Below, piece by piece: positions 34,597-62,749 of a DNA stretch of 64,000 bases (positions within the stretch are counted from its first letter, which is position 1; each line of letters opens with the position of its first letter). The notes under the pieces are model-generated. The model made no database searches and was not told the DNA's origin. It worked only from the letters and a program-made list of their open reading frames with translations. Source of the stretch: Marsupella aquatica (lineage: Eukaryota > Plantae > Marchantiophyta); NCBI GenBank assembly GCA_973895155.1, contig OZ316891.1, forward strand, positions 25,419,899-25,483,898, written 5' to 3'. Position numbers and translations under genes: made by a program.

Positions 34597-34789
34597 ATCA
34601 GCCTATTCATTAAAAGTGTATTATTATTTGATTTATGTACATTTGGGCAATGAAAAGTGTAAATTTGAACATCAAAATAGGTACATTTGGCTTTAAAAGT
34701 GTACATTTGAGTACATTTGGCCTAGAAAGTGTACATTTGAGTGAAAAATGCATACATTTGGCTTAAAAAGTGTACATTTAAGTGTATTT
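34597..34789. repeat. Element B TIR and subterminal GTACATTT repeats
   Basis: 26-bp TIR followed by several AAAGTGTACATTT(G) copies. Confidence 0.9.
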
Positions 34790-38139: not shown

Positions 38140-40622
38140 CTCTTCAAGGTCTCGAAGACACTTAGCCAAGGATGTCACTGTGAAATCGGCATCTCCTGGC
38201 CAAAGGCTAGTGACACTAAAGTGTGCATAAACTCCTGGATCCCTCCCGTGGGTCAACATCCCTGTGAGAGCAATAGGTAGCGGCATTCCATGACCCGAAA
38301 GAGATTTAGGAGTACTAACCATTTTTGGAATCCATGTCTTTGCTTGATCCATCTTGTCGTGAATAATGCAAAGATATTCTCCTGGGTGTTGTTTGGCCAT
38401 CACTCGATGAGCGTAGTAAACATATCTACGTGACATTTGCTCACGAAGATGTTGCGCTCGCTTTTCTTCAATTTCAGCACGTTCTTTTTTCCTTCTTTCT
38501 CGCATCAAACTGTCTTTGTATTCACAACAAAGAGTACACTTGGCAAATGCACCATCTTTATGAAAACTGAAGTTTACAAATGAGTTGCTCCAGATCTTGT
38601 AGAGAGTATTCTTTGTGACAGGAGGAAGCCCTTCTTCCTTCATCTTTGTTCTCACATCTTCTTGAATCTCTAGCTTCTTGTAACACGCCGAAAGACCGTA
38701 CTCAGTAGAGTCTGTCCCATGTGCCCCTCCATAAGGCATATGAGGCATGGGCTCTGCATTTCGAGTCAAAAAAGCCTCCAACAGAGCTCGTGCATGCAAG
38801 GTATTTGCCCTTGTTTTCATCAAGCCCGTATTGCCATGGAACCCAATTTTGCAACCCTCCACATATCTCCTTTTGTAATCATAATATTTGGTGTGGCTAA
38901 AACCGTGGATAATTGCAAATGCATGTCTGCATATGACCTTGGGGGTTTCACAAAAATGGCATATCACGTGCGACGAAGGATAGGGTCATTTTATTGGTTG
39001 TAAGGGAAGACTTAAGAATTTTTGTAGAAGAACAATAGGGTCTTTTAATTTTGAGACTTATAAGAATATTAGGGCCTTTTTAATCCAATTTTTGGAATAT
39101 TCCAAGGATATTCCAACTTTATAGGGGTTAAAAAATAATATTTTTTTCTTACATTTTAGGGGGTCCAAGGCCTAAAAACGTCGCAGGTGATGGGGAAATC
39201 CCCATGTAGTGAGACCCCCGAGCATATGACCATACCCTTAAGAACATGGTGTCCCTTATCACGAACATCATCCTCTCTATAGTGAAAGAGGTTGAAAATG
39301 TGTGACATTTTTGACTCGCTTGACATCCCATGAAATTCCATCCTAATACCTTCGATGTTTTCCCTTGGCATAATGAGACAACATTTTTGCTTGCAACAAT
39401 TTTCTCTTTTCACATCATCAATTGACGCCTCTGTTGTTTTTGAAATTGCCTTGGTTTCCAACAACCTCCTCTTCTTTTCATTTGGATCTACTTGATTCCT
39501 CTTGTTGAAATTGTACGGCCTTGAACACAATACTCCTCTATCACTTACATCCGCATTGAGTTCATCCCTATCCATTGAGTCCATCCTCTCAGAACCTTCC
39601 ACCAAAATGTCTGAAAAAAAATTTCCATTTGCAACTAGTTTTGTTGAATCAATCCGCCATCGAATCAAACTCACTATTCCCTTGTGGATGTTGGGAAAGT
39701 ATTGTGCTGCCACAACATCTTTCACAGCAATCCCAACATGGTCATCACCAAGAATTTCATCATCAACTGCTGCTGTCACTTGAGGGACAGTGATCGTTCC
39801 AGTAGCAACCATTTTGGTTCGATCCAAAGCAGTGTAGATTTCAACCAACTCTGACATCCAGTTTGCCCAATGAAAATAGTCACACTTAGTGTCCGTGGTG
39901 TTCGCCGAACAAGACTGTGAAACAAAATTTACCTTGTCCTTCTGCTTCTTAGAGGAAGATTTGTTGCTCCCATCAATATCAACATTCCATACTTTATTGT
40001 GGACGTCAACCACATCCCATAGAACCCAGGAGTCCTTTGCCTCTTCAATTGTTGCAGCTCCACCATGTGCGTAAGGTAAAGTCTTACTACCATGAATCAC
40101 ATCTGTGACTTTTACACTAACCCGAGACTCACCGAGTAATATGTTATGACATCTCTCCATTGGATCGGTCTTGAAAACAACTCCAAAGGCCACACAATGG
40201 CCAGAGATAAACATTTCAACCTCATCGCCTGGCCTTAGGGTGGTCAAAGCATCCTCCTCTACATTTGCAAAATTATGGATGTTGTTATCTTTTTGAGTCG
40301 AACAACTACCAATACTGATGCGTTTTTGAGTAATCTTATCCGCAAATCGATATGCACATGACATATCCCAAATGACACATGAGTCAATGGCATCATGAAG
40401 ATTTTCTGCCCTAGGCATTGGAAAAGGGAGCTTCCTAGTCTCACCAAAGGCCTTCTCAATGAGAACCCCAATTCGATTCTCTCCCAGCACAATATTTTGA
40501 ACACTCTCTCGCGGATCTGTCTTTTGAACTGTCCCATTTCCAACGTCGTAACCATCAATTGTCAAGGTAACATCATCACCCCTAGAAAACCTTTGAGACA
40601 TCCTTTTCCTATTTTCCTGCAC
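38140..40622 (-). pseudogene. Sola-like DDE transposase with three N-terminal Tnp1/DUF8039-like repeats; 3'-truncated and MITE-interrupted
   Basis: CCKQKCC...GMVIC|RHAFAIIHG...CTLC...HLREQMSRRYVY...IIHDKMDQAKTWIP; 4-bp TSD consistent with Sola. Confidence 0.7.
38939..39221. mobile_element. 283-bp Mutator-like MITE
   Basis: 10-bp TSD GCATATGACC (38929-38938, 39222-39231); TIRs TTGGGGGTTTCAC / GTGAGACCCCCGA; removal restores KGMVICRHAF. Confidence 0.88.
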
Positions 40623-40662
40623 ACTGAAAAAAATGGATTAAAACCAAACTCATGCAAATTTT

Positions 40663-41660
40663 GATTCAGACTACTATCCTCCAATTTCGGATTTGGACTA
40701 GGACCATCCGAGTCCGGATGTGGACCGGGACCATCCAAGTCTGGATTAGGACTGCAATCCTCCGAGTCTGGATTTGGACTACGATCCTCCAATTCTGGAT
40801 TTGGCCAGGGACCATCCAAGTCCGGATTTGGACCGGGACCATCCAAGTTTGGATTTGGACTGCAATCCTCCGAGTCTGGATTTGGACTACAATCCTCCGA
40901 TTCTGGATTTGGACTGGGACCATCCAAGTCCGGATTTGGACCGGGACCATCCAAGTCCGGATTTGGATTGCAATCCTTTGAGTCTGGATTTGGACTACGA
41001 TCCTTCGATTCTGGATTTGGACTGGGACCATCCCAGTCCAAGGTTGGACTAGAACCATCCCAATCCAAACTAGGACTCGGACCATCCCAATCCAAACTAG
41101 GACTTGGACCATCCAAGTCCAAACCTGGACTCGGACCATCCCAATCCAAACTTGGACTTGGACCGTCCAAGTCTAAACTTGGACCCGGACCATCCCAATC
41201 CAAAATTGGACTCGAACCATCCCAATCCAAACTAGGACTTAGACCATCCAAGTCCAAACTAGGACTCGGACCATCCCAATCCAAACTTGGACTCGGACCA
41301 TCCTAATCCAAAGTTGGACTCGGACCATCCAAGTTCAAACTTGGACTCGGATGATCCCAATCCAAAGTTGGACTCGGACCATCGTAATCCAAAGTTGGAC
41401 TCAGACCATCCCAATCCAAGGACTTGGACCATCCAAGTTCAAACTTGGCCTCGTATGATCCCAATCCAAAGTTGGACTCAGATGATCCCAATGCAAAGTT
41501 GGACTCGGATGATCCTAATCCAAACTTGGACTAGGGCCAATGAGAATCCAAACTTGGACTCGAATGATCCTAATCCAAACTTGGACTAGGGCCAATGAGA
41601 ATCCAAACTTGGACTCGAATGATCCTAATCCAAACTTGGACTAGGACCATCCTAGACCAA
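40663..41660. repeat. Tandem array of a 27-bp quasi-palindromic unit (~35 copies)
   Basis: Unit TTGGACTCGGACCATCCCAATCCAAAC (TTGGAYTNGGA-CCA-TCCNARTCCAA). Confidence 0.92.
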
Positions 41661-42499
41661 CCCATGATGTAATGGGAGATAAACTTCAAACATCTTAAGC
41701 TAAGAAAAATCCAAATTTAGGAAGACCCCGTATTTTACGGATCTCCCTAGATATGGTGTAGCCTAAAGTTTGTGTGGTCTTAAGGCAGACCCTAATGTCT
41801 ACATACAGTTTCATGAAATAATGGAACCTTAAATTTGAATGCATTAACCTTATACTCACCTTAGTATTAAGATCTGGTAGAAGATGAATATCACATCCAA
41901 GGGGTATACATTGTTGTTTGAATAATGGTAAAAATTTCCCAGAACCTTGAAATACAAGCTATATGCCACTAAATCTTGGGAGTAAAAAACAAACTGAACC
42001 CTAAACCACACATGTCTGTAAAAGATAAACTGAGAGGACTCCAAAAGTCAAGAAGCTGGCTAAGCTGACCCAATGAAGGTAAGTGGCTCAATACATAACA
42101 CTTTAAGAGAAACTCCACTCCGGATTACATGGAGCTTAGATTTGGGAAACTAGAACAAGAATGAGCTCCAAAGTGGGCATCTCCCAAATTATACCCTTTG
42201 CTCGAGTCGGCTCAACTGGAAATCGCGTGAAGATAAGGGTTGAGTACGCGTTCACCTTAGCTTGCAGACACACCTTATCTTCACGAGCCTAATTGCGCGG
42301 GGACTACCATGGAAGGCTGTTAGGTAGGCAGGACATCAAGGAAGGAGGCCGTATGCAAGGTGAGGGCAACGGGCCGGATGCAGGAGCAGGCCGTACGCCA
42401 GAGCAGGCCATACGCAATAGAAGGAGGCAACCGGCCGTACACAGGCCGGGGTGAGGCAGGAGGGGGTAAAGGGATGGAGAGGTCCAGCCAGGACCTCGT

Positions 42500-42760
42500 T
42501 CTCATTCTCTCACTCCTCGCTCTCTCGCTCTCTCGCTCTCCTCTCGCTCTCCTCCTCACTCTCTCGCTCTCCTCCTCACTCTCTCGCTCTCCTCCTCACT
42601 CTCTTGCTCTCCTGTCGCTCTCCTTGCTCTTTGCTCTCCGCTCTCTCTTTGCTCTCCGCTCTCTCTTTGCTCTCCGCTCTCTCTTCGCTCTCCGCTCTCT
42701 CTTTGCTCTCCATTCTCTTTCTGCCTCCCCGCCTCCGCCTTCCACCTTCCACCTCCATTC
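42500..42760. repeat. CT-rich simple repeats (CTCTCGCTCTCCTC; 18-bp GCTCTCCGCTCTCTCTTT)
   Basis: Directly visible; lies between the divergent transposase and cargo genes. Confidence 0.85.
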
Positions 42761-42988
42761 TTTTTTATTGCCCTAGATCGGACGCCTGCTAAGACGCCAC
42801 GTGTCTTTCTGCCATGTGTTAGAAAGATGGAAGCAAATCGCGTCCTTGTGATGTCCTACGTGGAAGAAATGGAGGAGTTTGACCTCTCCTCTATGAGCGA
42901 CAGTGTGGAACTGGCACTCAAAGACTCTAGACAATTTCAATCATGAATCCCTAGTAAGTATCCATCACCTATCCTCCCTAAGTCTTAG

Positions 42989-43275
42989 AGGACTGGGACC
43001 ATCCGAGTCCAAAGTTGGACTTGGACCATCCCAATCCAAACTTGGACTCGGACCATCCCAATCCAAAATTGGACTCGGACCATCCAAATCCAAAGTTGGA
43101 CTCGGATGATACCAATCCAAAGTTGGACTCGGACCATCCCAATCCAAAGTTGGACTCGGACCATCCAAATCCAAAGTTGGACTCGGATGATCCAAATCCA
43201 TCTAGGAGATTGAATCCCAATTGTAGGAGCAAGTCTAAAACCATCTCAAGTTGGACTAGGACCATCCTAATCCAA
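42989..43275. repeat. Second array of the 27-bp quasi-palindromic unit (~8-10 copies)
   Basis: Same unit as 40663-41660, immediately upstream of the ATG at 43315. Confidence 0.92.
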
Positions 43276-43314
43276 CAAGAGTTATGCAAATGTTTGAAAG
43301 GTTTTAAGTCTAAC

Positions 43315-43469
43315 ATGGATGACGTTTATGATGTAGGGAGCAATCTTGTTGTTTTCAAACCCGCGATTGCACCGACCCACTGCCTGGACAAATTCTTACT
43401 AGATGAGAGATCCCCACGCTTTTGATGGGGGCTTGAGTTCTCAAGAACCCCGCTTAATAATGAAGTGCC
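43315..43469 (+). pseudogene. 5' end of the element B cargo gene, split by the Copia
   Basis: MDDVYDVG...NNEVP joins in frame with STTIEPV at 56656+ across TSD GTGCC; contains one in-frame TGA. Confidence 0.6.
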
Positions 43470-44005
43470 TGTTGTAAACAAAGTAGATAATTGTAATCTT
43501 CCACACACTTCCATTATATCAAGGACTTATATAGTCCTAAGAGGTTAACATATTGGGTTAAGGTTAACCTACTCTAGTCTAGGGTTAAAGTAAACTATGG
43601 TTTATGACACTTCCCCTTGGTTAATTGGACGGGGTGTCAAGTAACCACACTTTTAACCCTAGTGTAAAATGGAATCCACTTTTGATGTAGCCTCATTAAA
43701 ACTTGTTGCTTTCTTCTCAAGGAAGAGTACTACCATCATTAGAATTTGTGGTCCATAAAATGTATGTTCTATATGATGAATTATCCTGTTAAATTCTAAG
43801 GTATGTTAAAATTTAGGGTAACTTTAGAGTAAGAGTAGTTCACTATGTCTAAAAGTATAATGTCTTATGCCCGAACGGTTAATTGAATCGAAGTAATGGT
43901 GTAAAGTCGGAGGTATATGTGTATAGCTTAGGTCGGGTATTTGGTAAACAGGGAGGTGTTGGGGGGAAAGGTCGAAACCCAAATCCGAAGTCCTCATTTC
44001 GTTTT

Positions 44006-44300
44006 TCAAGCATCTGCTTGGTGGGGTGCGTCGGCAGTGGGGGAAAGCAGGGTAGAGAGTCGACACATTCTGATGGCGGTAACGTGTTGTCGATGGGGTC
44101 CCGTAGGTAAGGGCTTCGTAAAAAGATCGGCGCAATTGTCTTGTGAACGGATCCACTTCACCTGGATCTGGTTTCCACTCTGTTCGTGCGTAAAAAAGAA
44201 TTTTGGATCAATATGTTTGGTCCGATCTGTCTTCATGTAGCCTGCAACAATTTGGTCGACGCATGCTTTATTGTCTTCGTAAATAATTGTTGGTTTGGTC
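44006..44300 (-). pseudogene. Copia RNase H C-terminus
   Basis: PTIIYEDNKAC...DRTKHIDPKFFFTHE...NCADLFTKPLP. Confidence 0.93.
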
Positions 44301-45313
44301 AATATCGTTTTGCCAGAGGGATGGAATGAGCTGGTGACCTTGAGAACTGGTTGCTTACGGGCGCTGACTTGTGCTCTCTCTCAAGAGCTTGGAATCATCC
44401 ACACCTGGATCGGGTGTGGGCGTTGCTTCCCGAGGGGGAAGGTTTTGATATGCAGGAGACACCGCATGCGAATGAACCCACTCTTGCTCACTCTCAACAT
44501 CTCCATGCTCTGGACGGCTCGGGAGATTTTAGAAGGTTTTAGGGCGGTTTAGGGTGTAGGAGAAGGGAGACGCACTGTGTGTACACAGACACGGGCATGG
44601 TGGGTACGGGGGCAGTTTGCTCGATGGAGAATGTTTCCTCAGATACAAGCGATGGCGAAGGAGAGTCTTAACTGTTACACATTGGTGGATAAATCGGTGA
44701 GTGTTGGGTGGATCCGATTCTGTGCTCGGCTATAACCGAGAGTGGCGGAAAAGTGATGAGTGAAAGGGCCAGGATGGGCTTTGAGGAGACCGGAGCGTAA
44801 GCGGACTGATGGTAGATGGGATTGGGAGGATCAATTTTCCGTATGTGGCTGTGCTGGCTGGTTGATGTGACCAAGAATGGTCTCTTCCAGAGGGGAGGAG
44901 CTGCGGGGACTTGATGGGAGGTAATCGCTTACGGAGGTGTGAGGGAATGCCTTTTAGCTGAAGAGGATCGAAGGAGCACGGGACAGTGGGACGTCCTCGA
45001 CAATCGTGGCTTATTCATTGATGGCGTGGAGACTTTTTGATGCCACTCTCCGTTTCTCATAACCTGGGATGGAGCGGTGAGACAATTCTGTATGAAGGTT
45101 TGGCAGCGAGAGGAGAGAGAATAGGGACGAGCTGAGAGCTGTTTCAACGTCGTAACCTGCGAATAGAAGGATGGGCGGGCATACACAGCGGTGAGAAGAA
45201 GGACTGACCTTGGTGCGCCTTGGAGACGAGGAGGTGTGGAGTGGCAGCGGGACTTCGAGCCATCATTGAATCTTCTGGTGAGTACAAGAAGACCTTGACT
45301 ATTTTATTCCTAA

Positions 45314-47287
45314 TTGGATGCAAAGGCTGTAGAGTCAAGGAAGGCCACTTGTATCATGGAGGAACAGGGGATAGACTATTATGGACCCTCGAGCCGCAGG
45401 AGCGCGAGGGGGGGACGCTTAGCTGGTGGACGAGTAGATCGGAGGACACAAGGGGAGCCTGCTGCAAGGCTTGAGGTGGGGGGGATACCCGGTGAAGCTG
45501 TGGGGCGATCACCTGCGCGGGGTGTTATGGTCAATGGACCTGCTATTGGATTCTCTGCGCAAGATGCGCGCTCTGGGAGGAACGACCCGAATTTGGGGGA
45601 GACAACTGCGGCCAGATCTCAGTTGTATTACTTGAATGGGAATGAGCGTCCGGTGAATGGACCTGGACCTAAGGTGCAGTCGGTGAGTGGAATGGAATTG
45701 CCTCAGAACCTGCAGGAGGGGGATGGAGCAGGGGAGAAGGAAGGCGAAGCTCTGCACTGGGGGCGTGGAACAATTGGAAGAGGGGCGAATGAGGTTAACC
45801 AGGATGCAATGGTGGGGAGTGAGGTGCCACAAGAAAATGTGGAGATGCAGGACGCGCCCGTGGAGGATGACGAATCTGAAGAGTGTATCAAGATCCTGCG
45901 CGAGATTGCGATCAGGTCCAAAGGTGATCTTGACAAGAGACTCTTTGCAGAAGTGGAATGGAACCTACCGGAAGCAGCTCGTAATGTGAGACAACTATAT
46001 AATTGCGCTCTCATATGCTACTTCACGGGAAGAACGCCGCTCCTCAATGATTTTAGAGCATGGGTAGACGAAGTGATGACAAACCAGGAGGGATGGCCGG
46101 TACTTCAGGTTAAATTCGTAGGGAAGAACTTTTACATGATAGTGTTTGAGGATCCTAATCACAGGGATCTGGCACTCAACTACGCACCATGGTTTATGGA
46201 GAGACGATTTATATACACGTTCCCATGGGATCCATCCTTTGATGTTAAATGTGAGAACTTCACGAAGCTCCCAGTGTGGATTGAGATACCGTTTAGGGAT
46301 CTTGCTCTAGAGGGCTGCAGAAGAAAGATTGCGTGCTCTCTAGGGACTCTGCTGTACTACATTCAGGGAAACGAATTCAGTTCGTATCCCCATGATCGGG
46401 CTTGCATCCTTTGGGACACGGACAGGGAAGTCCCTGCCAGTGTGAAGATTCGAATTCGTGATGACATTATTATCTGGCAACCGGTGACGTTTAAAAATAT
46501 CCCCTATCATTGCTTTCGATGCAACCAAAGAGGTCACCTGGCCCGTGAATGTAAAGTAATCTTGGAGACTGCCGGTGCTCTACGGATGGGAGCGGACCCG
46601 CCGGACGAGAAAGATGACGAGAGACACTCTGAGGCTGATCAGGAGGAGGTGTTGAGGGCTAAAGAAAATGCTGAAGCACGTGCTATTTTTCGGGGAGCCA
46701 TGGTGCCTCCTGTGCTGGAGGTACCCTTTTCAGTGGAGGAGGATATCGCTCAGGTGGAGTTGCTAATTGTTAGTCCGGTTCCTGGGGAGTTGGCAGGGCG
46801 GGACTCGGGGCCGCTGCTGCGGGAGAACCCGGATTTGCGGGTGGCGGCTTTCTCTTCGGGAACCAGGGAGAGAAGTGCTGATTGTCTCCTGACGCCTGGG
46901 CGGGCTGGCTGCATGGAGGACTCACAAGACACAGAGGCTGCCAGGATTCCACTACTGGCTGTCGTTGTCCCGTCAATTGGGCGACGGACTACTCAGAGAA
47001 ATTCAGTGGAACAAGGAATTGAAGCCCTTACTACTCCCAATTCGCGTGATGGAAATGATGAGACCTTCTCCTTTCACGAAGAATCTGATGCGGAGATGTC
47101 TGAATATGAAGCTTATATTTCACACAGCAAATTCAAAGCTAGAGCCCGCAAGCAAGAACTTCGCACACCGCCCTCTGAAAGGACTGAGAAGGCCAAAGGT
47201 GAGGCTAAGAAGCAAAGATCAATTAGATTCTCACGTGGTGCCATGTCTGATGCAGGAAGTGCGGACGGGATTACAATGCACAAGTGA
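45314..47287 (+). CDS. LINE ORF1 (DUF4283-like + zinc knuckle)
   Basis: GKNFYMIVF...APWF...PWDPSF...PVWIEIP...CFRCNQRGHLAREC. Confidence 0.9.
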   Translation: MDAKAVESRKATCIMEEQGIDYYGPSSRRSARGGRLAGGRVDRRTQGEPAARLEVGGIPGEAVGRSPARGVMVNGPAIGFSAQDARSGRNDPNLGETTAARSQLYYLNGNERPVNGPGPKVQSVSGMELPQNLQEGDGAGEKEGEALHWGRGTIGRGANEVNQDAMVGSEVPQENVEMQDAPVEDDESEECIKILREIAIRSKGDLDKRLFAEVEWNLPEAARNVRQLYNCALICYFTGRTPLLNDFRAWVDEVMTNQEGWPVLQVKFVGKNFYMIVFEDPNHRDLALNYAPWFMERRFIYTFPWDPSFDVKCENFTKLPVWIEIPFRDLALEGCRRKIACSLGTLLYYIQGNEFSSYPHDRACILWDTDREVPASVKIRIRDDIIIWQPVTFKNIPYHCFRCNQRGHLARECKVILETAGALRMGADPPDEKDDERHSEADQEEVLRAKENAEARAIFRGAMVPPVLEVPFSVEEDIAQVELLIVSPVPGELAGRDSGPLLRENPDLRVAAFSSGTRERSADCLLTPGRAGCMEDSQDTEAARIPLLAVVVPSIGRRTTQRNSVEQGIEALTTPNSRDGNDETFSFHEESDAEMSEYEAYISHSKFKARARKQELRTPPSERTEKAKGEAKKQRSIRFSRGAMSDAGSADGITMHK

Positions 47288-47533
47288 CTGCTGCTCACCA
47301 TTCCTAGAGGGAGCGATTGTGATGCGAGGGTCCAGGGGAATGCTCCTTTTGGCGGTGGAGTGGCGCATATAGCATCCCCCATGCGTGTCTCTCCTGCTGG
47401 CTCTATTAATGGATATTTGAGTGGACCTATGGGTCGAGATGTGACGGGGATGTCTCCCGGGGGACGGAATAGACTATGAGACGCAAGGATGGGGGGTGGC
47501 TGTGCCAGGATATAATTTTGGCATAGTAGGAGG

Positions 47534-50500
47534 ATGGACGGAAGGCTCAGGGTGGCATCCTGGAACGTTTGTGGACTTTGTGAGCCTAATCGTAAGCATA
47601 TTGTTAAGAATTGGGTAAGATCGCTGAAGGTACCGCTGGGGATTCTGGCCCTTCAAGAAGTGAAAGCTGATCAATTTAGACTTGATATGGCTCTGCGGGC
47701 TATTCTCCCATCATATCAGCACTTTTCTTCTGAGCCGGAGGAGGGAAAGGGAGGAACGGCACTACTGGTACCTGAGCTGAGGGTGGTGGGCTCGGGAACA
47801 CTGGATATGGGAAGGGCGGTATGGGCTGTGATCGAGAAGGGAGCGGTGACCTTCGGAGTTGCGTGTATATATGCTCCCAATTCAGCTAGACTAAGAGCTC
47901 TGCTATGGAATGATCTAAAGGTGATGCTACCACACAATGACTGGGTGCTGTGTGGTGACTTCAATATGACGGAACGCAGAACGGACTCGACTGGTACATC
48001 GCCGCTGATCCGCGGTAGAGAGGCTGAGTTTTGGAGATTCTTGAAGATGAGATTTAATTTGACAGACGCGTGGGACATTAGGGGAGGAGCTGCTGGCCCG
48101 CGCTTCACGTGGAGAAGGAATCGGAATGGAGAGATGTCACAGTCTCGACTCGACAGGATTTATGTTAGTGAAAGGGGAGAATGGCTTCGTGAGGTGGAAC
48201 TCCTGCATGACGGGGGCTCAGCCCTTTCGGATCATGATCCTGTTATGTTGAATGTGCAGCTCTCTGGACTGACAGAGACGGTGGAGAGAGGCAAAGTGCG
48301 TCTCTTCATGGCCAACCCGGCGTTTCTGCGGAGAAGGGAGGACATTCTGCGGCTGGAGGCTGCTTGGAGGGTGGGACGAGGAGATTTTGTGGACCCGCGG
48401 CTGCGCTTTGCTAAGGGCAGCTGGAAAATGCGTCAAACATTGAAGGAAATTCAAGCCCAACCAAGGACAACTGAGATGGAGATGGCAGCTCAGCGAGCTC
48501 AGTTGCGAGTTCTTAAGATGGCCATTATAGAACACCATTCAGAGGGAGACATTGCAGAGTTCATGGACGCGGAAGACACTCTACATGCTTCAAAGTTGGA
48601 GGAAGCACATAGAGGACGACGGCTAGCCAGAATTAAGTGGTTAAGTGAAGGAGACGAGTCAACAAAGTTTTTCTTTGCTACAGTGAGGGCTAAGCGATCT
48701 CGTGAGTCCATGCCTTCCCTGAATAGGGAGGACGGGAGTATAGTAGCTGACCCTGGAGAAATCTTGAAGGAGGTAGAAAGGTTCTGCCAAACATTATACT
48801 CGCCTGATCCGCGATTGGAAGCGGAGTTGGAAGAGGTTCGTGTGGCCAGAGACAGACTGCTTGGCAACACAAGGTTTGCACTCTCTGGAGCGGAGAATTT
48901 GAGGATGGAGAGACTCCCGTCATACCAGGAGGTGAAGGAGGTGCTGTGGCTCCTGCCTTGTGACAAAACGCCGGGACCGGATGGCATGACAGCTGAGGTC
49001 TACAGAGCATGCTGGGAGTTTCTCGGGCAAGATCTGGTGGATATGATACAGGAGTTCTGGCTTACGGGGGCTTTGGACGTTGGAATCTGTGAAGGAATTG
49101 TGAAGTTCATACCCAAGAAACCTGATAAACGGTTTTTAAGGGACTGGCGCCCTTTGACAATGTTAAATACTATATACAAGCTCATTGCCAAGATCCTCGC
49201 TATACGACTCAAACCGATTCTACACATGATTATTAGCCCGCAACAGACTGGATTTATACCTGGAAGACACATTCTTGAAAATATTTCCTTAGCCTGGCTT
49301 ACATGTGACTGGGTGCACAACAAGAGGAGAGAGGCATTGTTCCTAAAACTGGATTTTGAGAAGGCCTTTGACCGTGTTTCACATGACTACTTATGGGAAT
49401 GCATGCACCTACTGGGCATCAGCGGACGCTTCACTATGCTGGTCAGGGCCCTGCTAGCACAGGCATCTTCCAGGGCCTTGGTGAACGGATTACTATCAAA
49501 CACATTTGAGCTTAAACGAGGGGTAAGACAGGGCTGTCCACTGTCACCATTGTTGTTTGTAATCTCCACGCAACCTCTTATGGACTTTCTCGATACTGAG
49601 ATGGCGGAGGGCCGACTTTGTGGACTGCAGATCACCCCTGGATTCACTATCTGCTATAGACTGTTTGCGGATGATGTTGGGATGTTTATCCCGGCCACAG
49701 AGCGTGCCTTTGAGGAAGCAACCACTGCTCTAGAATGCTATGAGATGGCTAGTGGGGCGCGACTGAATCTGAAGAAATCCGTTGTGATCCCATTGGCATT
49801 GGAAAGGATCCCAGAGTGGCTGAACAACACAGGCTGCCTTATCAGCCTTTTGGGGGGAGTTTGAGCACGGAACAACTGCACAAATTCTGTTTGGATAAGA
49901 TTTGTGCCAGACTTTCTGTTTGGTCCAACAAACTTCTTTCTTTTACTGGCCGTTCACTACTGGTCAAACAGGTACTACTTGCTATCCCGATCTACCATGT
50001 AATGTATTGCAAGGCATCTGTAGGCCTGGCGAAGAAAATGATTGCTCTGAGCAGGGAATTTTTATGGGGATATAATGCCACTGGAGGACGGAAGGTCCCC
50101 CTGGTGGCCTGGGATCGGATGGCTTTGCCACGTGTGGAAGGGGGGCTGGGATTCCGGGACTTCCGCAGTCACTCTGATGCATTACTTTCTCAATGGTTCA
50201 CTAAGGCACTTAACGCGCCTGAGACGAAATGGTCTAGGATGTTGGCAGCCAACCTGAAATTGATGGGGTGGACGAACTACAAAATTATTAGGCGAAATGG
50301 ATACTCCTTCCAGGACCGGCTGCTACTGTGCACGCCTCGTTCATTTAGTGGGCTCCCCTACACGACAGGTCTCTGGAGAAGCTGGGAGCTAGTGAGAGCC
50401 CACTTATTCTTCGATCCTGGGCGGACGGGGCCACCTTCCCGGTGGAGCATCATGGATACCCTCAGGTGTATGGTGGGCTTCAATTCCCTTCCGAATAAAG

Positions 50501-51417
50501 CCCTCATAGAGATTGCTGCAATTTGTGGCAGGCTGGGATTGAGGTCTATTGGTGATGGATGGTCGACGGAGGATGGATGTTGGAAGGACCTACCGCTACG
50601 ATGGCACAATATGCGTGGCTTTTCTGATGAGCATCGAACGATGGCTCGTTCGTTCTTGGAGTGCCTTTGGCGGGCAGACAATTGCCGATCTGAATACTAC
50701 TTGTATGCCAAGCAGTGGAGATGGACAGACAGACCGGAGCCGCTGAAGGACTTCAGAATCGAGAATTGTAGAGTGTATGATTTCTTAAGGCCTAAGACTG
50801 CATCCCATGACCGCCTCAATCGGATCTGGTCACTGTCCTGGCCTGAGATGCGCTGGAATATGTGTTGGGCTAAGCTTTGGGGGTCTGATCTTCCGATTAG
50901 AGGCAAGACCTTTGTGTGGAGGATTATTGTAGGGGGCCTTTTCACTGGGGCACGTGCGCTCAGAATGGAGGTGAGTAATGGAGATTGCAAGCTTTGCAAA
51001 GGATGGCTGGAGACGATCCCCCACGTGTTCTTCCACTGTACACATGCGGTCCGTTGCTGGCTACTCTGGCAGGATTCGTTGCAGATTCTGGGCTTGCCAA
51101 TGGGACGAGGTCTGATGGCTCTTTTAGAGGCGGCCTGCGGGAAGGAGCCTGTGCAAGTGGCCCGGATCTTCGTCTTGCACCATATTCTGTGGCGACTCTG
51201 GACGGGAAGGAACACTCACATGTTTCAGGTGGGGGGGAGACGGGTGTTTGACTTGGGACTTGTTCTGAAGGAGGCAGCGGAGAACGCTTTTGCTGTTAGT
51301 CGGCGCTGCCCCCCGGGCAGGAAGTGCACCCGCCTGATTCGGGCAAAGGCATGGATGGATGACCTGCGTAGGGTTTGGCTAGGCAGTGGCAGCATTGCTG
51401 TCAATTCTTTTGCTTGA
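47534..51417 (+). pseudogene. LINE ORF2 (APE endonuclease-RT-zinc finger), frameshift/deletion near 49850
   Basis: SWNVCGL, LQEVK, GDFN, SRLDR, SDH; KTPGPDG, WRPL, KLDFEKAFD, GVRQGCPLSP, LFADD; CKLC...ETIPHVFFHC. Confidence 0.93.
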
Positions 51418-51694
51418 GGGGGACCGTGGCTTCCTGGATGATCTGACTGTTGAATGCCCTCTTATGTTGGGCTTGGGCTTGTGTTGGTGATTGATTTTCC
51501 CTTTTCCACTGTTTGGTGGTCGGGGGGCTGTGGGATATGCGCTGGTGATGTGTGCCTGTGCGCTGTGTGTTCGGCTTTGTTTTATGTCCCTTGGTCTGGC
51601 CTTCTGGTCTGTCTGTTTGCCCTCCCCGTGGGGCTTTTCGCGGGGGAACCAAAAATTATAAAAATGTTCCCATTCCAAGGAATATCGTTTTGCC

Positions 51695-54600
51695 TGTTTG
51701 TTTCAGGATATAGTTGATAATACTGCGGAGCCATATTGCCTCACGACATGCTTCATAGAGAGAGATGACTTCTGCGTGATTCGAGGAGGTTGTGGTCATG
51801 CTCTGTTTCGTACTCCTCCAGGATATGGCAGTTCTCCCTTGTAGGAAAACGTAGCCAGTCTGTGACTTCGAGTCCTGTGGGTCAAAGAGGTACCCCGCAT
51901 CTGCATAACCGATGAGTTCATCTGGGTTGTCGTTTGGGAAGAAAAGGCCCATATCTATTGAGCCTTGAAGGTAGCGGAATACCCTTTTCACACCGTTCCA
52001 ATGCCGAATAGTTGGATGTGCAGTGTGTCGTGCCAGTAAGCTTACTGCGAAGGAGATATCCGGTCTTGTATTGTTTGCCAGGTAGAGAAGGGCGCCAATG
52101 GCTGATAGATATGGCTTATCCGAGTCAAGGGCTGGTTCATTCTCCTGTCGTCGCCTAAACATGTCCTTAGCTGTGTCCAATGACCGCATCTCCATGGGTG
52201 TGGACACAGGATATGCATTGTGCATATTAAATTGTCGAATGATCTTCTTGGTATAGGTTGATTGACTAATAAATGTGCCAGTTTGCAGGTATTCAAATTG
52301 TAGTCCTAAGCAGTATGTCGGCTCTCCAATTTCTTTCATCTCGAAAATACTCTTCATTGTATTAATAGTTTTGTGTAAGAGTTGTGGAGTACCAAATAAG
52401 TTGACATCATCGACGTACAGGGCGAGGATGACGAATTCTGTATCGATGTGTTTGATGAATATGCACGGTGCGATATCGTTGTTGATAAATCCAAGGGTTT
52501 GCATCTCAGTTTTAAACTTCTGGTACCAGATGCGTCCACTTTGTTTTAACCCGTTGATGGATTTCAGGACTTGCACAACAAACGCCTGCTGTCCAGTCCC
52601 ACTTTTTCTGGGGTGCTGGAGTGGATCTTTATTTGTGTTGCCACTGCTCAACACTAGGCCTTTGAGCTTCTCATCTGGTACAATCTGTCGTATTCCCGAC
52701 TTCATGTCCTTACTCAAGTTCTGGAAATGTTTCCCTTGGACATGTTCTGTCACTCTTGCGAGTAGTTCTTTTGGGGCTTTCATGAAAATTTTGGAGTCTA
52801 GTACTCCATATAGGTACGCTGTTACAACGTCCATTAGTATATTACAGAGTTGGTGTTTTCAAGAGAAAGCTATAAGATACCTGAATGTAGTCACATCCAT
52901 AACAGGTGAATAGGTCAAATCATAATCCCTTCCCGGGATTTGAGTGTAGCCTTTCGCTACTAAGCGTGCGCGGTATCTAATGACATCTCCTTTGGCATTT
53001 CTCTTTCTGACAAATGTGAATCTGCTGTCTGTGTAATCATTGTTAGGTTGGACTTGTTTTAACGGGCCAAAGACATGCCTATGGATCAATGCATCCATTT
53101 CAGTGTTAATGGCCTCTTGCCACTGTGGCCAATCCGACCTCGCTTGTGCTTCTTTAATGGTTAGGGGGTCCGGAGTGTCAGTTGATATTTGCTGAGCTAT
53201 GTGATAGGCAAATTGTGCATCAACGACAGTGTTGGGTCTTTTATAGATTTGTCCGGTGTATTGGTATGGGATGGCCATTTCTTCATTATCTGGTACGTTA
53301 GATCTATCTGGTTCATTAGTAATAGCATGCATCATGGTTTCAGGTAGTACCTGATGAGGGAGTCTCTGGCGTGGTCGGGAGTCTCTAGATTCTGGTGGCC
53401 TACCTCTTTTTTTCTTTGCCGTGGTCTCCATTGCTGATTTTGTGGCAGGTTGTACTCGAGCTGGTACGTTTGCTGCCTCTACATGGGATCTTGTAACGTT
53501 GGCTGCATCATTAAAGGCGTCGGGGATCTTGTCCAACATTTCTTGGAGGTGTAGTAGTCTGCGGACTTCCTCATCCGCTCGCTTCGTTCGCGGGTCCTGG
53601 TTGAGTAATTTTCGACTGTTCCAATTTATGCTTTGTGGAGGTGTATCCCTCGTCAGTGGTTTTTCTGTAAGTAACTGGGGGAATGAATCTTCATAGAAGT
53701 GACAGTCTGCGTATCTGGCTTTAAATAGGTCTGCAGTGGTCGGTTCCAGGTAACGGATTATGGATGAGGAGTCGTAGCCAACGTAGATGCCTTCCTGTCT
53801 TTGAGGTCCTATTTTAGTGCGCTTTGGCCCAAGGATGGGGACCATCACTTTGCATCCAAAGACGCGCAGATGTGACAGATCAGGGGGTAATCCGAACGCT
53901 AAGTGGTGTGGAGTTTTGGTATTAAACGCTGAGGGCCTGTACTTCAGCAATGTGGTGGCGTGGAGGACTACATGTCCCCATGCGGAGAGGGGTAACTTGG
54001 AGTTCAGTAGGAGTGGTCGAGTAATCATTTGGATACGCTTTATAACAGATTCGGCAATTCCGTTTTGAAAATGGACGTAGGGAACTGAGTATTCTGTGTC
54101 AATTCCCGCCATCCAGCAGAAATCATCGAATGCTTTGGAGGTAAATTCCCCTGCTCCATCCACTCTCAGTTTCCGGATTGGATTTTCTGGGAATTGTGCT
54201 TTAAGTTTTAATATATTGGCTAAGATTCGTGCAAAGACTAAGTTTCGACTAGAAAGGAGGGATACTTGTAACCATTTAGTCGATGAGTCAATTATGGCCA
54301 GGAAGTACTTAAACGGTCCAATGGGTGGGTGTATTGGCCCACATACATCTGCGTTCAGGTGTTCCAAAAAATTTGGGATAGCATGGATCGTCTTCGGTAT
54401 TGGTGGTCTTGTAATCAGCTTCCCTTGAGAATAGGCTAAGCATTGTTGTTTCATTGTGGATGGGTTGACTCCTTGTGGGATTCCTCTGGAGTCCTTGATA
54501 ATTCTCCGGTACATATTTACTCCTGGGTGTCCCAGTTGGTAGTGCCATAGGTGTGTTATTTCTGATGATTCAGTTGTAGAATAATTTACAGTAATTTGAG

Positions 54601-55996
54601 TCGCATAGAGACCGGGGGGTATGAGTGGTAATGTCTCTTTAATATTGGTTCCATCATTGGTAATCTCCAAAATTTGTAGTGTGTCCTCTTCATCTGTCTT
54701 TGCCGTTCGCAGTTGGTATTTATTAGCGACTACGTCCCGAAAGCTTATCAAATTTCGAGTAGCTCGTGGGGCAAAGATTGCTGCATCAATATCAATAACT
54801 GTTCCTTGTGGGAATGTCACTGTTGCGGCTCCCTTACCTTCTTCTATCTGGTTTATACCCAAAATTGTGGTCATTGATCGTGTAGATGGGGTGATACTGT
54901 GGAAGTACTTCTTGTCTTTAAGAATTGTATGTGATGTTCCGCTGTCAATTATCCCAAGGTTGGGGTCATCTAATGAGGTGTGTATTGATGCTGGTGTTAC
55001 CATATGGGTCTCCTGTTCTTCAGGTTGTTGTGTAGGTGTTTCTTCCGGGTCCTGATAGTTAGCTAAGTCTTCCTCCATCTCCATATAGTTGCCTTCTGGA
55101 TTTTGCTTTAATTGGGCCCTTGCTTCTGTATGTCGTTTAGCTGCTTGGTCTGATGCCCATCAGTTCTTCTTTATGTGTCCTATTTTACCACACCGGTAAC
55201 ACAGCCTATCTTCTCTGATGTTATCAGGTGGTATGTTTCGTCTGCTGTCTTGGCCGCTTGCTCCTCGACCCCGTGAGTTGTATGAAAAACGGTTTCCTCG
55301 GCCTCTGGGATTTTGATTCCTGCTTCTGTCTTGATATCCGCCTCTGCCTCTTGATCTGCCTCGTCCCCTTTGGTTTCTCATATTATAATTTGTTTCTGGT
55401 TTTTGTGGTGGTGGGGCTGATCCTGCAGGTCGTTTTCTAGCGTTCTGCAGGGCAACGGTCTGCTGCTTCTCTTCTACCAGTAAATGTGCAATGAGGTCTG
55501 AGTAGACTGTAAATCTCATATTTCTGTACTGTGTACCGAGGGCTATATTTGCTTCTGGGAATGTGCTTAGTGTTTTGTCGATCATATCTGCATCAGGGAC
55601 CGGATGGCCACACAACTCCAATTGGGATGTGATTCTAAATAATGCGTTGTTGTAGCTGGCTATTGATGTGTAGTCCATCACTCGCAGGTTATACCAATCA
55701 CGGCGGGCTTCTGGGAGCCAGACTTCGCGCATATGGTCGAATCTTGATTTTAATTTATCCCATAGTAGGCGTGGGTTGACCTCGTTCATATATTGGGTTT
55801 TGAGTGGAGGAGCCAAATGCTGGCGTAATAAGAAAACGGCCTTAGCCTTTTGTTGTAGTGTCAGATTATTATCATTTATCAAAGTATCTTCGAGTTCCAG
55901 TGATGCAAAATATGTTTCTGCATCTACTGACCACGTTAGGTAGTTGTTGCCGTCTACTGAAAGGGCCTGAAAATGCAATTTCTCCAATGTTGCCAT
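51695..55996 (-). pseudogene. Copia gag-pol (gag, PR, INT, RT, RNase H start) with in-frame stops
   Basis: DGNNYLTW, CYRCGKIGH, IIDSGTSHTIL, WHYQLGHPG, DVCGPI, VDGAGEF, RARLVAKGYTQ, LYVDD, GYADAGY. Confidence 0.93.
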
Positions 55997-57342
55997 ATTT
56001 CTTGCACTTGTACTCGGGATTGTAATGCTCGGTGTGGTGGTGTATATATATAATACTTGGGTCTATCCAATTGGTAAATATATGCTTCGGGGAGTTATAG
56101 GTGCTGGTTCGAAGCACCTATAAGTCCAATTTCGGGATTTCACCGTAGCATTGTTGTTTCTAATTTGGCATAATGGCCATTCCCAAATCCTGCATTGGAT
56201 TCCTTGATGAAATAAGTTGGATGGAACAAAAAAATTAGACAAATCCGTCCTTACGGCAATGAAGATTGAGATCGCTAATGGATGCCTTCCTCATAGCAAT
56301 CTGATGTCTGGGCTCAATTTTTGCGTAAACTAGCATCACTTTTTAGGTGGGATTGTACTCAATTTTGGGGTAGTTAGGCGGTTACATAGGATTCCGGTGC
56401 CAAAAATGCAACATTCTTGGTAATTTTCTATGTAAAAACTATGATCTCTCAATATGTCTGTTGGGGCAGCCTAGGCAAAAAAAATCATTGAGCCAGTCGT
56501 GCTAATAACGTGTTGTAAACAAAGTAGATAATTGTAATCTTCCACACACTTCCATTATATCAAGGACTTATATAGTCCTAAGAGGTTAACATATTGGGTT
56601 AAGGTTAACCTACTCTAGTCTAGGGTTAAAGTAAACTATGGTTTATGACAGTGCCATCAACCACGATTGAACCTGTTTTGACCTTAAAGTGCAGAGGAAA
56701 TAATAGCCTGACTTTTGTTTGCGGACCTGTGGTCTCTGTTGGCATTGGAGGGAGAGGGATGAATACGGTCATTCTTGAGATGCACGATAAGTCCTGTTGG
56801 GTTAAAGTTAACCTTCTGTCAAAGGCATACTCCTCTGAATTCAATGTCGAATGGCACGCAAGTGGGTAATTGAGCATTTTGTCAATGGGATTTTTTCCAA
56901 AGACCTATGACACAAAGAAGTTGGTCGTCGGGGTAACTGGTATGCTTCCAGTCGACATTATGTATGGGTTTCAATATTTGAAACTCAACATGATGAAGCA
57001 CCAAGGCAATTTTTCTTTTGCAACGACCTGGACGTTAAGCAATTTACTTGAGAAAGCTGGATTATTATCGTCGGAGTCGGAGGAGCCTGGTGTTTTAATT
57101 GATAAGGATGTTGCATTTGCTCCCAAGTTTGATTTAGTCAAAGCAAAGCAATGGATAGAATCTTTGTCCAAGACGAGAAAGCTTCTAGCGGTGAATACAA
57201 ACCCTGTGCCCGAGAAAGCGCCAGAGAAAGCTCCAGAACCTACAACAGAGACCGCGGGAACTACAACAGCAACCTCTCAAAGAGCAGTGGGAAAACGAAA
57301 ACAAAGCCAAAGGAAACCTCCGGTTGAGAAGAAACTTCCGGT

Positions 57343-57500
57343 TGAGAAGCCGAGTACGAGAAGCCGAGTACGAGAAGCCGAGTACGAGAAGCCGAGTACG
57401 AGAAGCCGAGTACGAGAAGCCGAGTTGAGAAGCCGAGTATGAGAAGCCGAGTTGAGAAGCCAGTTGAGAAGCAACGTCTGGTTGAGAAGCCGAGTGCAAG
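57343..57500 (+). repeat. 14-bp tandem repeat GAGAAGCCGAGTAC within the exon
   Basis: About five perfect and several degenerate copies. Confidence 0.9.
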
Positions 57501-58282
57501 TGAAAGAGACCAAGACAGAAGAAGAAACAGAAAATTGACAGTGCCATCATGGATGATACTACAGAAAACCTGACAGTGCATTCACAAGATGTGGACGAGC
57601 AGTTGAACGCTCCTGAGGAGAAGAAGGTCTTAGAAGGTAATGAGGTATTGCAACAAATGGAGCAATATTATACGTTTGGGATCAATTCGATATTTTCTAT
57701 TCCTATAGACAGTATTTTCCCTGCGTCGGCAAGACTCTGTTATAGAATGTTGAATGCAGAACATGTAAAGGAGGTGGCCAATTCCATGATAAGAAATGCG
57801 GGGCATGAACCACACATAGCAGACTTGATTCCTTACACTACAAAACATAGAAACCTAATGCAGTATGACAGCACAGAATCAGATAGGAGGGACTTTGTAG
57901 CAGCCGTGAAAAAGGGCGAGGTTCAATTCCTTGCCATTAGCGGTCAACATTCGGCTAGAGCAGCCAGATGGATTCGAGAATGGGCAAACAAGGATGCCAA
58001 GCTGACAACATTGGCAAAAAAGCTGGAATTTTGAAAGTCAAGAATATTATCTCATCGAACACCATCATCAATATTAGTTGAGCATTCAATGCGATCTAAT
58101 GCGATCAATAGCACGATGGTGTTTGAGTCATGCTTCAAAGATACAGTCGTTCATGCTAGGCGACAATTTGTGGAATGTGGAAAACCTAGCCGGCCAAAAC
58201 ATGGGGACAACAAAACAAACGCTCAAGACAATCAAAAATTTCAGGTACGAAGTGTTACTGCTTGATGGGTACAATACCGTAG

Positions 58283-58676
58283 ATTCATGCACATTCAGTA
58301 GAATATTTCCACTGATATCTCCTAGTTTTGCGTTGGTCTGGGATGGTCCCAGTCCAAATGGATTCATGCACATTCAGTAAAATCTTTGTCCACTGATATC
58401 GTCTAGTTTTGTGTTGGACTGGGATGGTCCTAGTCCAAATGGATTCATGCACATTCAGTAGAATATTTCCACTGATATCGCCTAGTTTTGCGTTGGACTG
58501 GGATGGTCCCAGTCCAAATGGATTCATACACATTCAATAGATTATTTTTCCACTGATACTGTCTAGTTTTGTTCTGGACTGGGATGGTCCCAGTCCAAAC
58601 TAAATCATGCACTTTCAATAGAATATTTCCACTGATACTGTCTAGTTCTGTGTTGGACTGGGATGGTCTCAGTCCG
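58283..58676. repeat. Intronic ~80-bp tandem repeat x5, each unit containing the element-B palindrome
   Basis: ATTCATGCACATTCAGTAGAATATTTCCACTGAT...TTGGACTGGGA-TGG-TCCCAGTCCAA. Confidence 0.92.
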
Positions 58677-61242
58677 CACCTGAGTGCTATCAAACAATTG
58701 AGTTATGGAGAACTAACAGACTGTCCTTTTCAATTGTAGGATTGGTTGGCTCTTGCAAGAATGACCATGGGAAGGAAAGATTGTCGAAATGTTTACTGGT
58801 TACTGTTTGTGGACGATGCTCTTTTTGAGTTATGGAGTTTGGTATGCCAGTTGTGGTTGGATGGGAAACTTCCCGATGGAGCTGGGGTAGAAGGAAATGA
58901 GAAGTGTGAAAAAGCAGTTACTGTTGCCATGTTTCGTTGTTTTGATGGTGAGTTGATCTCACAACGAGACATCACAAGAATACTGACGCGGGTGAAGTCA
59001 GGAAAGGCATTGCTAAAGAAAGATGCCTCTAATAAATCAGACATGCCATCTATAGAGGAGTTGGCCAAAGATGTGAAGATCGTGCGGAAACTGAAGTCCC
59101 TTATTGAAGACTACTATTGCACCAAGGATGCGGTGAATTTCCCGGCAAATACTAATTGGGGGAAAGTAGTGGAGGTTCTTCCTACGCTAGCAATTGACTC
59201 AGAGTTCAGCAGGTGTCAAAGAGCCGCTGGCGAGGTCTATCTTGCTAACCTTTTAAAACCAAATCATACGCGGGAGAGCGCAATCTTGCCGACGGCATTG
59301 GCATTCCGCCTAGATGATATATACTGCCAGAAATTTGACCCTACCATGGGCTACATTTTTTAGCGACAATCTCATGAAGACCATTGATCCAGAGTCATTG
59401 CAAGAAGCTCCTCCGACCTGCCCTCTTGCCATTGTTGATTTTAGCCGGCTTCCGCAAAAACAATGGACTAAAGCAGAGATTCTTGTTCTCTTTGAATACA
59501 TTGTGGAGCTTCCACAAAATCCCACGATTGTTGTGACGATAACAGTTCATCCTGGACAACTTGCATTGAATGTCCATGGTGCCCTTCGTAAACTGGGACA
59601 AGAGAAAGCTTTGACCATTCACATTGAGTATGGGAGTTATTCTCAAGATGATCAACCGCACCCTCATGACTCATGTTGGGGTGGGGGGATTGAAGAAGTT
59701 ATCTTTGCGGGGATTTCTCGAGATGAAGACGTCAATTGAAATGAAGTTTTCAAGCCCAACTATCCAAAGCCAAAATTCTTGTATACTGCAAAGGATGTTG
59801 ATTACGAAGTATGCAAGATCGACAAGGGAAAGGGGAAGGCGAAGGAATCAGATGAGGGGACACAAAACAACAACCTAAAAGTGGTTTTGGACCCGGAAGA
59901 GGCCGTCAAGATTATGAATATGGCCCCTCGATTTGAGACAGTTGGCAGTCGCGGAGGGTGGGTTAATCCTCATGCCAAACCCACGCGGATGATCTGAAGG
60001 ATTATTGAATCCTTGTCAGAACCAGGAGATTTGGTTCTAGATTTTTTCTCCGATGGCCAAGTCATGAAGACATCATTTTTTTGCGATAGGGAATGCTTTG
60101 TTTATTGTGACTCTCACTCCGAGAGGCATTTTGTGGAAGCTTTTGCTTCCTACCTTTGCGAGAGAGTTCCCTCACTTAAAGCTCATTGTGAATCACTTGC
60201 TGAAAATTCTTGACAATGGGCTACCACTGTTGCGGCTGTAGCTATCGCTGTTGAATCCGATGGTTTTGAGTCTGAAGATGTTGCTGACAAAGTGGATGAA
60301 GGCGTAGAGGCATCAAAGGAGGCATATGTCAAGAATTTGGATGACCGTGTTGGTCAAGGTGAGCCTTATGATGTAGATGATGATATTGGACTTGTACCGA
60401 ACCGTTCATCTGGTTTAGATGACATCCCTCCGGGGCCCAATGAAGTTCAAGTTGATGATAACTTGGACAAGGATGATCCCAATCCATCAACGCCGGGAGG
60501 ACAGATGGAGCAACTGGAAGGAGCAAGGGTTGATACGTTTGATCATCTTTCTTCAACCAATCTGATCAATGAAGGCGCAACGAGGCTTGGAGATTCAAAT
60601 GAAGCTGAAACTAAAGAATTGACTCGGGGGGAGACCGAGGGGGAGACTGGCGGATTGCCTGACATTCCAATCAATCCAGGAGGAAATGCATCAACGGCTG
60701 CTGACAACCAGGCAGGTGCTTCAACTTGTCCTGACACACTTTTCAGCTTCTGATGACAAATTGGTGTTCGTTTGTTCACACTCGGGGAGTCCTATTGTCC
60801 TTTCGCTCTCAAAAAAAAGGAAATAGAGTTGGATCAACTGGATGGAGGTCATTGGAATGCGACGCACGATGTTACGTGTGGAAAAGTGGGCCAAATCGAG
60901 GCCAAGAAATATCATTGGATGTTGCTCCTTCAATTCTCAATAAGGAGGAGTATAAGAGTGGAGAATTGGGGTTGATAACTCCTGTTTGGACTTCACCTTA
61001 TTGGGTAGAACAAAGTACTTCAAATGTCAATTTTGAAATCCAACAGGAGCTTGGTGCTGACATGATTATTGATGAATACGGATCTCTTATTTTGGAATGA
61101 AATTCAGCCTTTGACTTTGTATTTATTCATATCAATCTAAAATACTTCTCGGTCTCACAGAATGCGCTCACCAATTAAAGTCTCCATATCCGTCTACACA
61201 TTGTGAGGCTTCTAAAAATGGTATGTAGGTTAATTTTCTTTT

Positions 61243-62619: not shown

Positions 62620-62749
62620 AAAGTGTACATTTAGGTATCAAAAAGTGTACATTTGGGCTTCATAAAGTGTACATTTGGGGACATAAAAGTGTACATTTCA
62701 GGACTGATTTGTGAACAAAAGAAAATACACTTTTAATGAATAGGCTGAT
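62620..62749. repeat. Element B opposite TIR and subterminal repeats
   Basis: AAAGTGTACATTT x4, then AATACACTTTTAATGAATAGGCTGAT. Confidence 0.9.

Follow-up and report, generated by a model that had tools for sequence, protein, structure and literature searches.

Two transposable elements in a 64,000-nt window of the liverwort Marsupella aquatica (contig OZ316891.1, positions 25,419,899 to 25,483,898), element B and the element A in which it is nested, carry related genes for a ParB-methyltransferase-like protein. Each family amplifies a palindromic word of its own at the same place, a homologous intron of that gene, as revealed by duplications of the A word and by a B subfamily that resumes at the palindrome. 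Because each element combines a related ParB-methyltransferase-like gene with its own intronic word, the words are likely landing sites for self-recognition. On balance we favour the view, drawn from sequence comparison, that each palindrome is a parS-like binding site of the ParB-like accessory protein encoded by the same element. The observations behind it are the element ends, the confinement of the motifs, the homologous intron, the recurrent tandem amplification, the methyltransferase fold of a relative and the missing catalytic motif.

The palindrome of element B

A matrix for the 25-bp motif, trained on 23 of the 27-bp units and used with a cut-off of 10 bits, gave 44 sites: 28 in array 1, nine in array 2, five in the array of 80-bp units and two single copies.

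40666-41660 (+), array 1, 27-bp units with 28 motif matches (40669-41652 in Tandem Repeats Finder, TRF), in the predicted transposase intron 40617-41859
42988-43275 (+), array 2, eight tandem units and one single copy (TRF 42990-43200), in a predicted 5' untranslated region (UTR) intron of the cargo gene
58282-58677, array 3, five 79/81-bp units with the core reversed (TRF 79/80-bp, 58282-58675), in intron 58245-58739
60463-60487 (+), single copy in the coding acidic tail, 25.0 bits
61266-61290 (+), single copy in the predicted intron 61221-61339 before the NIF open reading frame (ORF), 29.4 bits

All 44 sites fall between 40693 and 61290, inside B, so that the window gives no sign of a satellite unrelated to the element, which an earlier note on this DNA had considered. 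No match reached 10 bits in 30 dinucleotide-block shuffles (best 9.6 bits), none was found in element A or the nested retroelements of the window, and metagenome contigs held no exact match. The terminal repeats of B also lack the palindrome, and the repeat found at its ends is another one.

The consensus is TTGGACT(C/G)GGA-CCA-TCC(C/A/T)A(A/G)TCCAA, with six positions invariant in 44/44 copies, although tandem copies are not independent of one another. The earlier note had described the array core as a palindrome with 11-bp arms and a 3-nt spacer. The core stands, but its perfect 11-3-11 form occurs in only two of the 44 copies (41017 and 58493). Of the 11 arm pairs, nine can pair in 31 to 44 copies, pair 6/20 in 19/44 and pair 8/18 in 11/44. 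The motif occurs in both orientations with respect to the transcript, and pair 8/18 shows no covariation, which fits recognition of double-stranded DNA and argues against an RNA hairpin.

Much of the earlier description of the arrays survives in corrected form. TRF recovers the 27-bp array at 40663-41660, but in its left part (40666-41016) only 6/13 units hold the core. Nor does this array simply lie 5' of the transposase ORF, since it sits inside a predicted 1243-bp intron (40617-41859) whose exon join is in frame; open frames running through it were treated as by-products of the repeat. The array at 42989-43275 is 5' of the cargo gene as described, following a GTAAGT donor at 42954 and preceding the probable ATG at 43318. 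The same core does recur in a different unit of about 80 bp in intron 58245-58739, where five sites were found and the 48-bp non-core part shows no relationship to the arrays of 27-bp units (local scores 16 and 13). The count of three arrays was right, while the single copies at 60463 and 61266 had been missed. The B core is thus found in 27-bp units, 108-bp higher-order units, 80-bp units and single copies. Upstream of the core, the 80-bp unit (58282-58675) also contains another inverted repeat, weaker and about 21 bp long.

The homologous intron and the word of element A

58245-58739 (+), conserved B intron, phase 0, GT..AG, with array 3 inside
32990-33082 (-), homologous intron of A, phase 0, GT..AG, with the A palindrome at 33025-33042
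12939, 14762, 31170, 31209, 33025 and 34371, six strong 18-bp sites of A, spanning 12939-34388, between predicted splice sites

The two introns share column 605 of the protein alignment, and the A intron carries the A word at 33025, just as the earlier note had it. The homologue P0014 is spliced and reads across the 58245-58739 junction. After removal of a spurious ankyrin protein (P0075) from 83 homologue matches, 52 of the 82 remaining clusters had a mappable anchor; 43 of these 52 end within 70 residues, and the Val expected from read-through of the GT is present in 41. Intron 58245-58739 is therefore well supported, while the introns around array 1, array 2 and 61266 are predicted.

The A word is an unrelated 18-bp imperfect palindrome with a conserved spacer and short arms. 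In leave-one-out tests its six strong sites reach 20-27 bits, while shuffled sequence gave at most 16.3; all are within A, with none in B or the nested retroelements, and four weaker A-type sites fall within the chance range.

Contigs from four sequencing runs (X1-X4) were compared with both elements. Other copies of A duplicate the word in the homologous intron (X2, X3 and X4) and at 34371 (X2), and the base at 33027 is nearly always more symmetric in them. A subfamily of B in X1-X4 has a different intron start and resumes at the palindrome (joint 58283 to 58414); another group in X4 carries a different intron. The layout known from VANC targets, a family-specific motif in non-coding tandem repeats that include introns, is present in both families.

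Ends and copies of element B

34597-62749, element B, a whole transposon of 28 kb with perfect 26-bp terminal inverted repeats (TIRs) and the target site duplication (TSD) CCTG
34597-34622 (+), left TIR, TSD 34593-34596, flanks varying in other copies
62724-62749 (-), right TIR, TSD 62750-62753
34637-34779 (+), left subterminal repeats of 20-22 bp with a AAAGTGTACATTT core
62620-62698 (+), right subterminal 22-bp repeats with the same AAAGTGTACATTT core as at the left
5700-6042, miniature inverted-repeat element (MITE) with B-type TIRs, 343 bp, TSD ATAC, subterminal AAAGTGTACATTT repeats

Element B is a cut-and-paste transposon that carries cargo. It is about 11.6 kb long once nested insertions are subtracted, and its left side is partly deleted. 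Deleting it from the sequence restores an F-box-like ORF of A, and the empty insertion site was seen in contigs of X3 and X4 (two studies); other contigs show varied flanks at the left end, and one X4 contig joins 62383, at the NIF end, to the right subterminal zone. Because thousands of contigs match at 80-99% identity (3542, 1464, 481 and 1021 in X1-X4, contig depth not being equal to copy number), B is a multi-copy family with subfamilies.

The MITE serves as a natural control, since a matrix scan found no 25-bp palindrome in it. As it has B-type ends but lacks the motif, the palindrome is unlikely to be needed in cis for transposition. The subterminal AAAGTGTACATTT repeats, judged by position, are the likely transposase sites.

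38140-41949 (-), B transposase gene, 3'-truncated, exons at about 41860-41949, 39156-40616 and 38140-38985

The transposase, whose 3' end was lost in a deletion adjoining the nested long terminal repeat (LTR) element, matches DUF7869 at E 0.0016, below the family cut-off, and an Atlas cluster (score 0.92) in which 35% of members carry DUF7869. A DUF7869-like transposase together with the 4-bp TSDs found beside the TIRs of both B and the MITE makes B probably Sola-type. Sola elements have 4-bp TSDs, and DUF7869 is linked to their transposases; Sola1 is listed for Physcomitrella. We dropped a reading of the ends as hAT with an 8-bp TSD, since B and the MITE both fit a perfect 4-bp TSD.

The N-terminus of the transposase (39159-40616, -) has two, possibly three, tandem domains of about 75 residues. 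The first pair scores 142 against a shuffle maximum of 44 and the third is marginal. They have no Pfam match and presumably resemble the En/Spm TnpA-type DUF8039.

The ParB-methyltransferase-like protein

43318-60753 (+), B cargo gene, split by a Copia element, with stops and frameshifts in this copy
B cargo domains: N-terminal, ParB-like (57570-58244), helical middle, methyltransferase-like (about 59400-60210), acidic tail
31140-34304 (-), ParB-methyltransferase-like gene of A, core exons, ParBc_2 E 0.021
61340-62377 (+), NIF/FCP1-like phosphatase-fold ORF of B, PF03031 E 3.6e-7 and 1.4e-6, frameshifted here

A Copia element with a long interspersed nuclear element (LINE) inserted in it interrupts the first coding exon of the B gene, and other copies differ at several of the stops and frameshifts seen here (59739, 60211 and 61627). 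The only named relatives are Riccia sorocarpa proteins of about 25-30% identity to B (3/10 looked-up relatives, and 52/52 matches in a search with a Riccia query), representing a few close families. Word-based protein searches gave 0/1236 candidates for the B methylase region and 0/3957 for the alignment, and contigs from metagenomes, prokaryote genomes and viruses yielded no related loci.

For a Riccia relative, a model built on 75 rows had a mean pLDDT of 56.6, with residues of about 150-390 at high confidence; the helical middle region is modelled with high confidence in a relative. In Foldseek the C-terminal part of the relative P0092 matches beta-class amino-methyltransferases (RsrI E 8.6e-8, CcrM; 39 matches at E ≤ 1e-3) and has their permuted Rossmann fold. 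B itself matches PF01555 at E 5.2e-5, below the cut-off. Motif I, which binds S-adenosylmethionine (SAM), reads DFFSDG in B, is DFFSGG-like in 48/54 relatives and is degenerate in A. For motif IV the sequence is DFSRL in B and DPSSM in A, and 24 of the 27 relatives in which it was located have D(V/L)THP; the catalytic [DNS]PP[YFW] is absent from A, B and all collected relatives. As the methylase half lacks its catalytic motif, testing for methylation written on the arrays would probably mean looking for the wrong mark. Marchantia DN4MT1 was considered as a candidate relative; its TSPPY motif differs from motif IV here.

The NIF domain comes next in both A and B, and is joined to the protein in 16/52 Riccia models. 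The catalytic motif of NIF/FCP1 phosphatases is DxDxT. At that position the two NIF domains (12165-13718, -; 61340-62377, +) read DLNKIL or DVEHLL, a replacement which suggests that they, like the methylase half, may be inactive.

In A the ParB-methyltransferase-like frame (15882-17125 and 30638-31145, -) runs across a Gypsy insertion at 17133-30637 (TSD TCTTT) and on into AEKAE repeats, after which come ULP1 and NIF ORFs. The frame may encode one very large spliced protein.

What the palindromes may do

ParB-type domains are known with palindromic sites in bacterial ParB/parS and KorB/OB. On the favoured reading, the ParB-like protein of each element would bind its palindrome as a dimer, at sites held in introns because introns tolerate them, and the sites would become denser through tandem duplication, as reported for VANC targets. 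Once bound, the protein would spread and keep the genes of the element usable, most likely by countering host silencing, with the methylase-like half as a non-catalytic DNA- or SAM-binding module, and a different word for each family would limit cross-talk. For the effect after binding, anti-silencing is our first choice and KorB-like autoregulation the second, while writing of N6-methyladenine (6mA) or N4-methylcytosine (4mC) is unlikely because motif IV is lost. The interpretation in the earlier note receives partial support: the motif is confined to B and recurs in unrelated units, and A amplifies a word of its own.

Several points weigh against this reading. Assignment of the protein to ParB deserves moderate confidence, as judged from sequence and fold. 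Pfam evidence is weak (ParBc_2 at E 0.021 in A, DndB in 2/75 sequences) and the ParB clusters in Atlas reach no more than 0.80. Among viral folds, a relative is matched best by a phage ParB/Sulfiredoxin protein (E 9.5e-7), but with a TM-score of 0.27 and a root mean square deviation of 21.9. No ParB appeared in PDB profile searches or among the Foldseek PDB matches listed, nor was there a ParB match in PHROGs, NCBIfam or phage tblastn. The arginine patch with which ParB handles CTP is GxxRxxA; here that position reads SGQHS in its commonest form (49 sequences), with Q and H invariant and a downstream Asn at least 90% conserved (34 sequences). No helix-turn-helix (HTH) was identified. As to the sites, the core of the five 80-bp units is hardly more conserved than the flank (0.90 and 0.84), and the sites of A were selected by pattern ahead of scoring. 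As the left subterminal zone of B is partly deleted, copies of the word may have been lost there. The DNA comes from two families only, which makes protein/site coevolution a candidate reading.

Of the four rival explanations the strongest, itself unlikely, is that the transposase binds the internal palindromes and regulates transcription of its own family, the ParB-like gene being unrelated cargo. The tandem repeats in the B transposase N-terminus speak for this, as do sequence-specific activation by a Mutator transposase, described in the available part of a preprint (10.64898/2026.08.24.746577), and a weak A-type site (14.1 bits, within the chance range) near the candidate end of A. However, the ends have their own repeat, common to the motif-free MITE, and in both families it is the ParB-like gene itself that holds the motif, in its homologous intron. 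Less likely again is a neutral, duplication-prone word that spreads without a protein partner wherever insertions are tolerated, as in introns. The rarity of perfect copies, the similar conservation of core and flank and the loss of the core from every second unit or so at the left of array 1 are all consistent with it, but the six positions are invariant across unrelated contexts (in copies that are not independent), single copies stand in separate introns, and A has the same layout with an unrelated word.

We see only a slim chance that the same binding brings in an active amino-methyltransferase, which would mark the element as self by depositing 6mA or 4mC around the arrays. The beta-class fold of a relative and the SAM-binding motif kept in 48/54 relatives would allow it, and activity of this kind is proposed for Sola1-1_Ec32 in the text available (PMC12477816); it is the motif IV sequences, none of them [DNS]PP[YFW], that argue against it. 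The slimmest chance of all goes to an intronic RNA hairpin acting as a splicing signal or small-RNA source. The motif is mostly intronic and nine of its 11 arm pairs are largely complementary, yet both orientations occur within one transcript, pairs 8/18 and 6/20 are broken without compensation in most copies, and the A word has a conserved spacer and short arms.

A bolder extension of the binding-site reading, which we regard as doubtful, is that ParB-pseudomethylase and NIF form a cassette of phage origin which serves land-plant transposons as a portable module for self-recognition. It would cross superfamilies (B Sola-like, A possibly CACTA), load as a sliding clamp on parS-like palindromes that are specific to the family and kept in its own conserved intron, and protect its family from silencing. 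It would then be another VANC-like system of independent origin, comprising dozens of diverged families whose protein-to-site code can be read.

Relation to known systems

VANDAL elements have a Mutator-type transposase and a TSD of about 9 bp. B has a 4-bp TSD and a DUF7869-like transposase, and none of the ORFs scanned had a VANC-related Pfam match (DUF1985). The VANDAL/VANC analogy of the earlier note accordingly holds for layout and fails for membership: the protein is unrelated and the transposon belongs to another superfamily. For VANC21 and VANC6 of Arabidopsis VANDAL elements, the part of the source available describes a family-specific motif amplified in tandem, both within introns and in upstream sequence, and gained or lost from copy to copy (PMC5735166). 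Those targets are 9-bp words in one orientation, with binding and demethylation shown, whereas the words here are palindromes of 18-25 bp known from sequence.

Closer precedents come from brown and red algae. In the giant DNA transposon architecture described there, a ParB-like accessory gene lies near inverted-repeat arrays, and B has the same arrangement. According to the text available, Sola1-1_Ec32 of Ectocarpus carries a gene with ParB-like and amino-methyltransferase parts on the strand opposite the transposase, whose product is proposed to bind and modify its own element (PMC12477816). B is likewise probably Sola-type with a ParB-like and methyltransferase-like gene opposite the transposase, a likeness of architecture. 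Unlike the brown-algal element, as far as its description is available, the catalytic motif here is lost, a NIF gene comes next and two families have different intronic words; the word stem 'palindrom' is absent from the main text of that paper.

PAG3 of the Bostrychia Plavaka (EnSpm) elements is described, again in the text available, as a set of ParB-like genes beside tandem inverted-repeat arrays proposed to be binding sites (10.1101/2025.02.11.637652). B resembles it in having a ParB-like accessory gene with nearby palindromic arrays. In PAG3, however, the ParB-like part is fused to a 2-oxoglutarate (2OG) oxygenase, the methylase is a separate gene and the arrays are adjacent, whereas those of B are intronic. 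The text available on PAG3 describes no family-specific words such as those of A and B, although the supplements may show them.

The text available also mentions ParB-Tls methylases of phages and, from a chlorophyte, a ParB-HTH fusion belonging to another methyltransferase group (PMC4738411). The phage fusions share the order of the B and A proteins, ParB followed by a beta-class methyltransferase. Unlike bacterial ParB, the present protein has SGQHS for the arginine patch and no HTH identified, its gene is spliced and eukaryotic, and no partition ATPase was seen in B. A literature search, mostly at listing level and with subscription papers largely outside it, found no bryophyte case. Within the literature searched, neither the occurrence in a plant nor family-specific motifs at one homologous intron had been described.

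Algal ParB-type accessory genes have been proposed to bind their own elements, with no test reported in the text covered. Here two neighbouring families have homologous proteins but differ in the candidate sites that this intron holds, and so offer a built-in specificity control; the matched pair suits cross-binding comparison and the plant lineage has a transformable model. About 80 homologue clusters under 50% identity share the exon end, and a protein-to-site code could be read from genomes. If the binding is real, plants would possess another route, of bacterial origin, by which transposons recognise themselves sequence-specifically, and the proteins would be a source of long-site DNA binders.

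Superfamily of element A and nested insertions

34790-38139, nested non-autonomous LTR element, right LTR lost in the deletion
43470-56650 (-), nested Copia element with a LINE inside, TSD GTGCC, empty site in X2

Element A is possibly CACTA. A CACTA pentamer at 11940 lies 30 bp from the end of homology to an interrupted CACTA transposase, and there the CpG observed/expected ratio (o/e) climbs from 0.27 to about 0.8; the other end of A is beyond the window. CpG depletion (o/e 0.25-0.27) marks the outer elements but not A. CACTA pentamers at 11940 and 3202 adjoin the points where CACTA transposase genes break off, which suggests CACTA-in-CACTA nesting.

The Gypsy element within A has a dispersed palindrome, GACGC-N6-GCGTC, in its LTRs and leader (17418-17530, 19283-19380 and 29535-29690), with a geometry like that of the A word. 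The LTR element at 34790-38139 matches a copy at 7806-11170 in inverse orientation with 97-100% identity, and both carry a fragment of an ABC-transporter gene. Between the divergent genes of B, a CT-rich tract of 18-20-bp repeats (42506-42718) is probably part of the 5'-UTR of the cargo gene.

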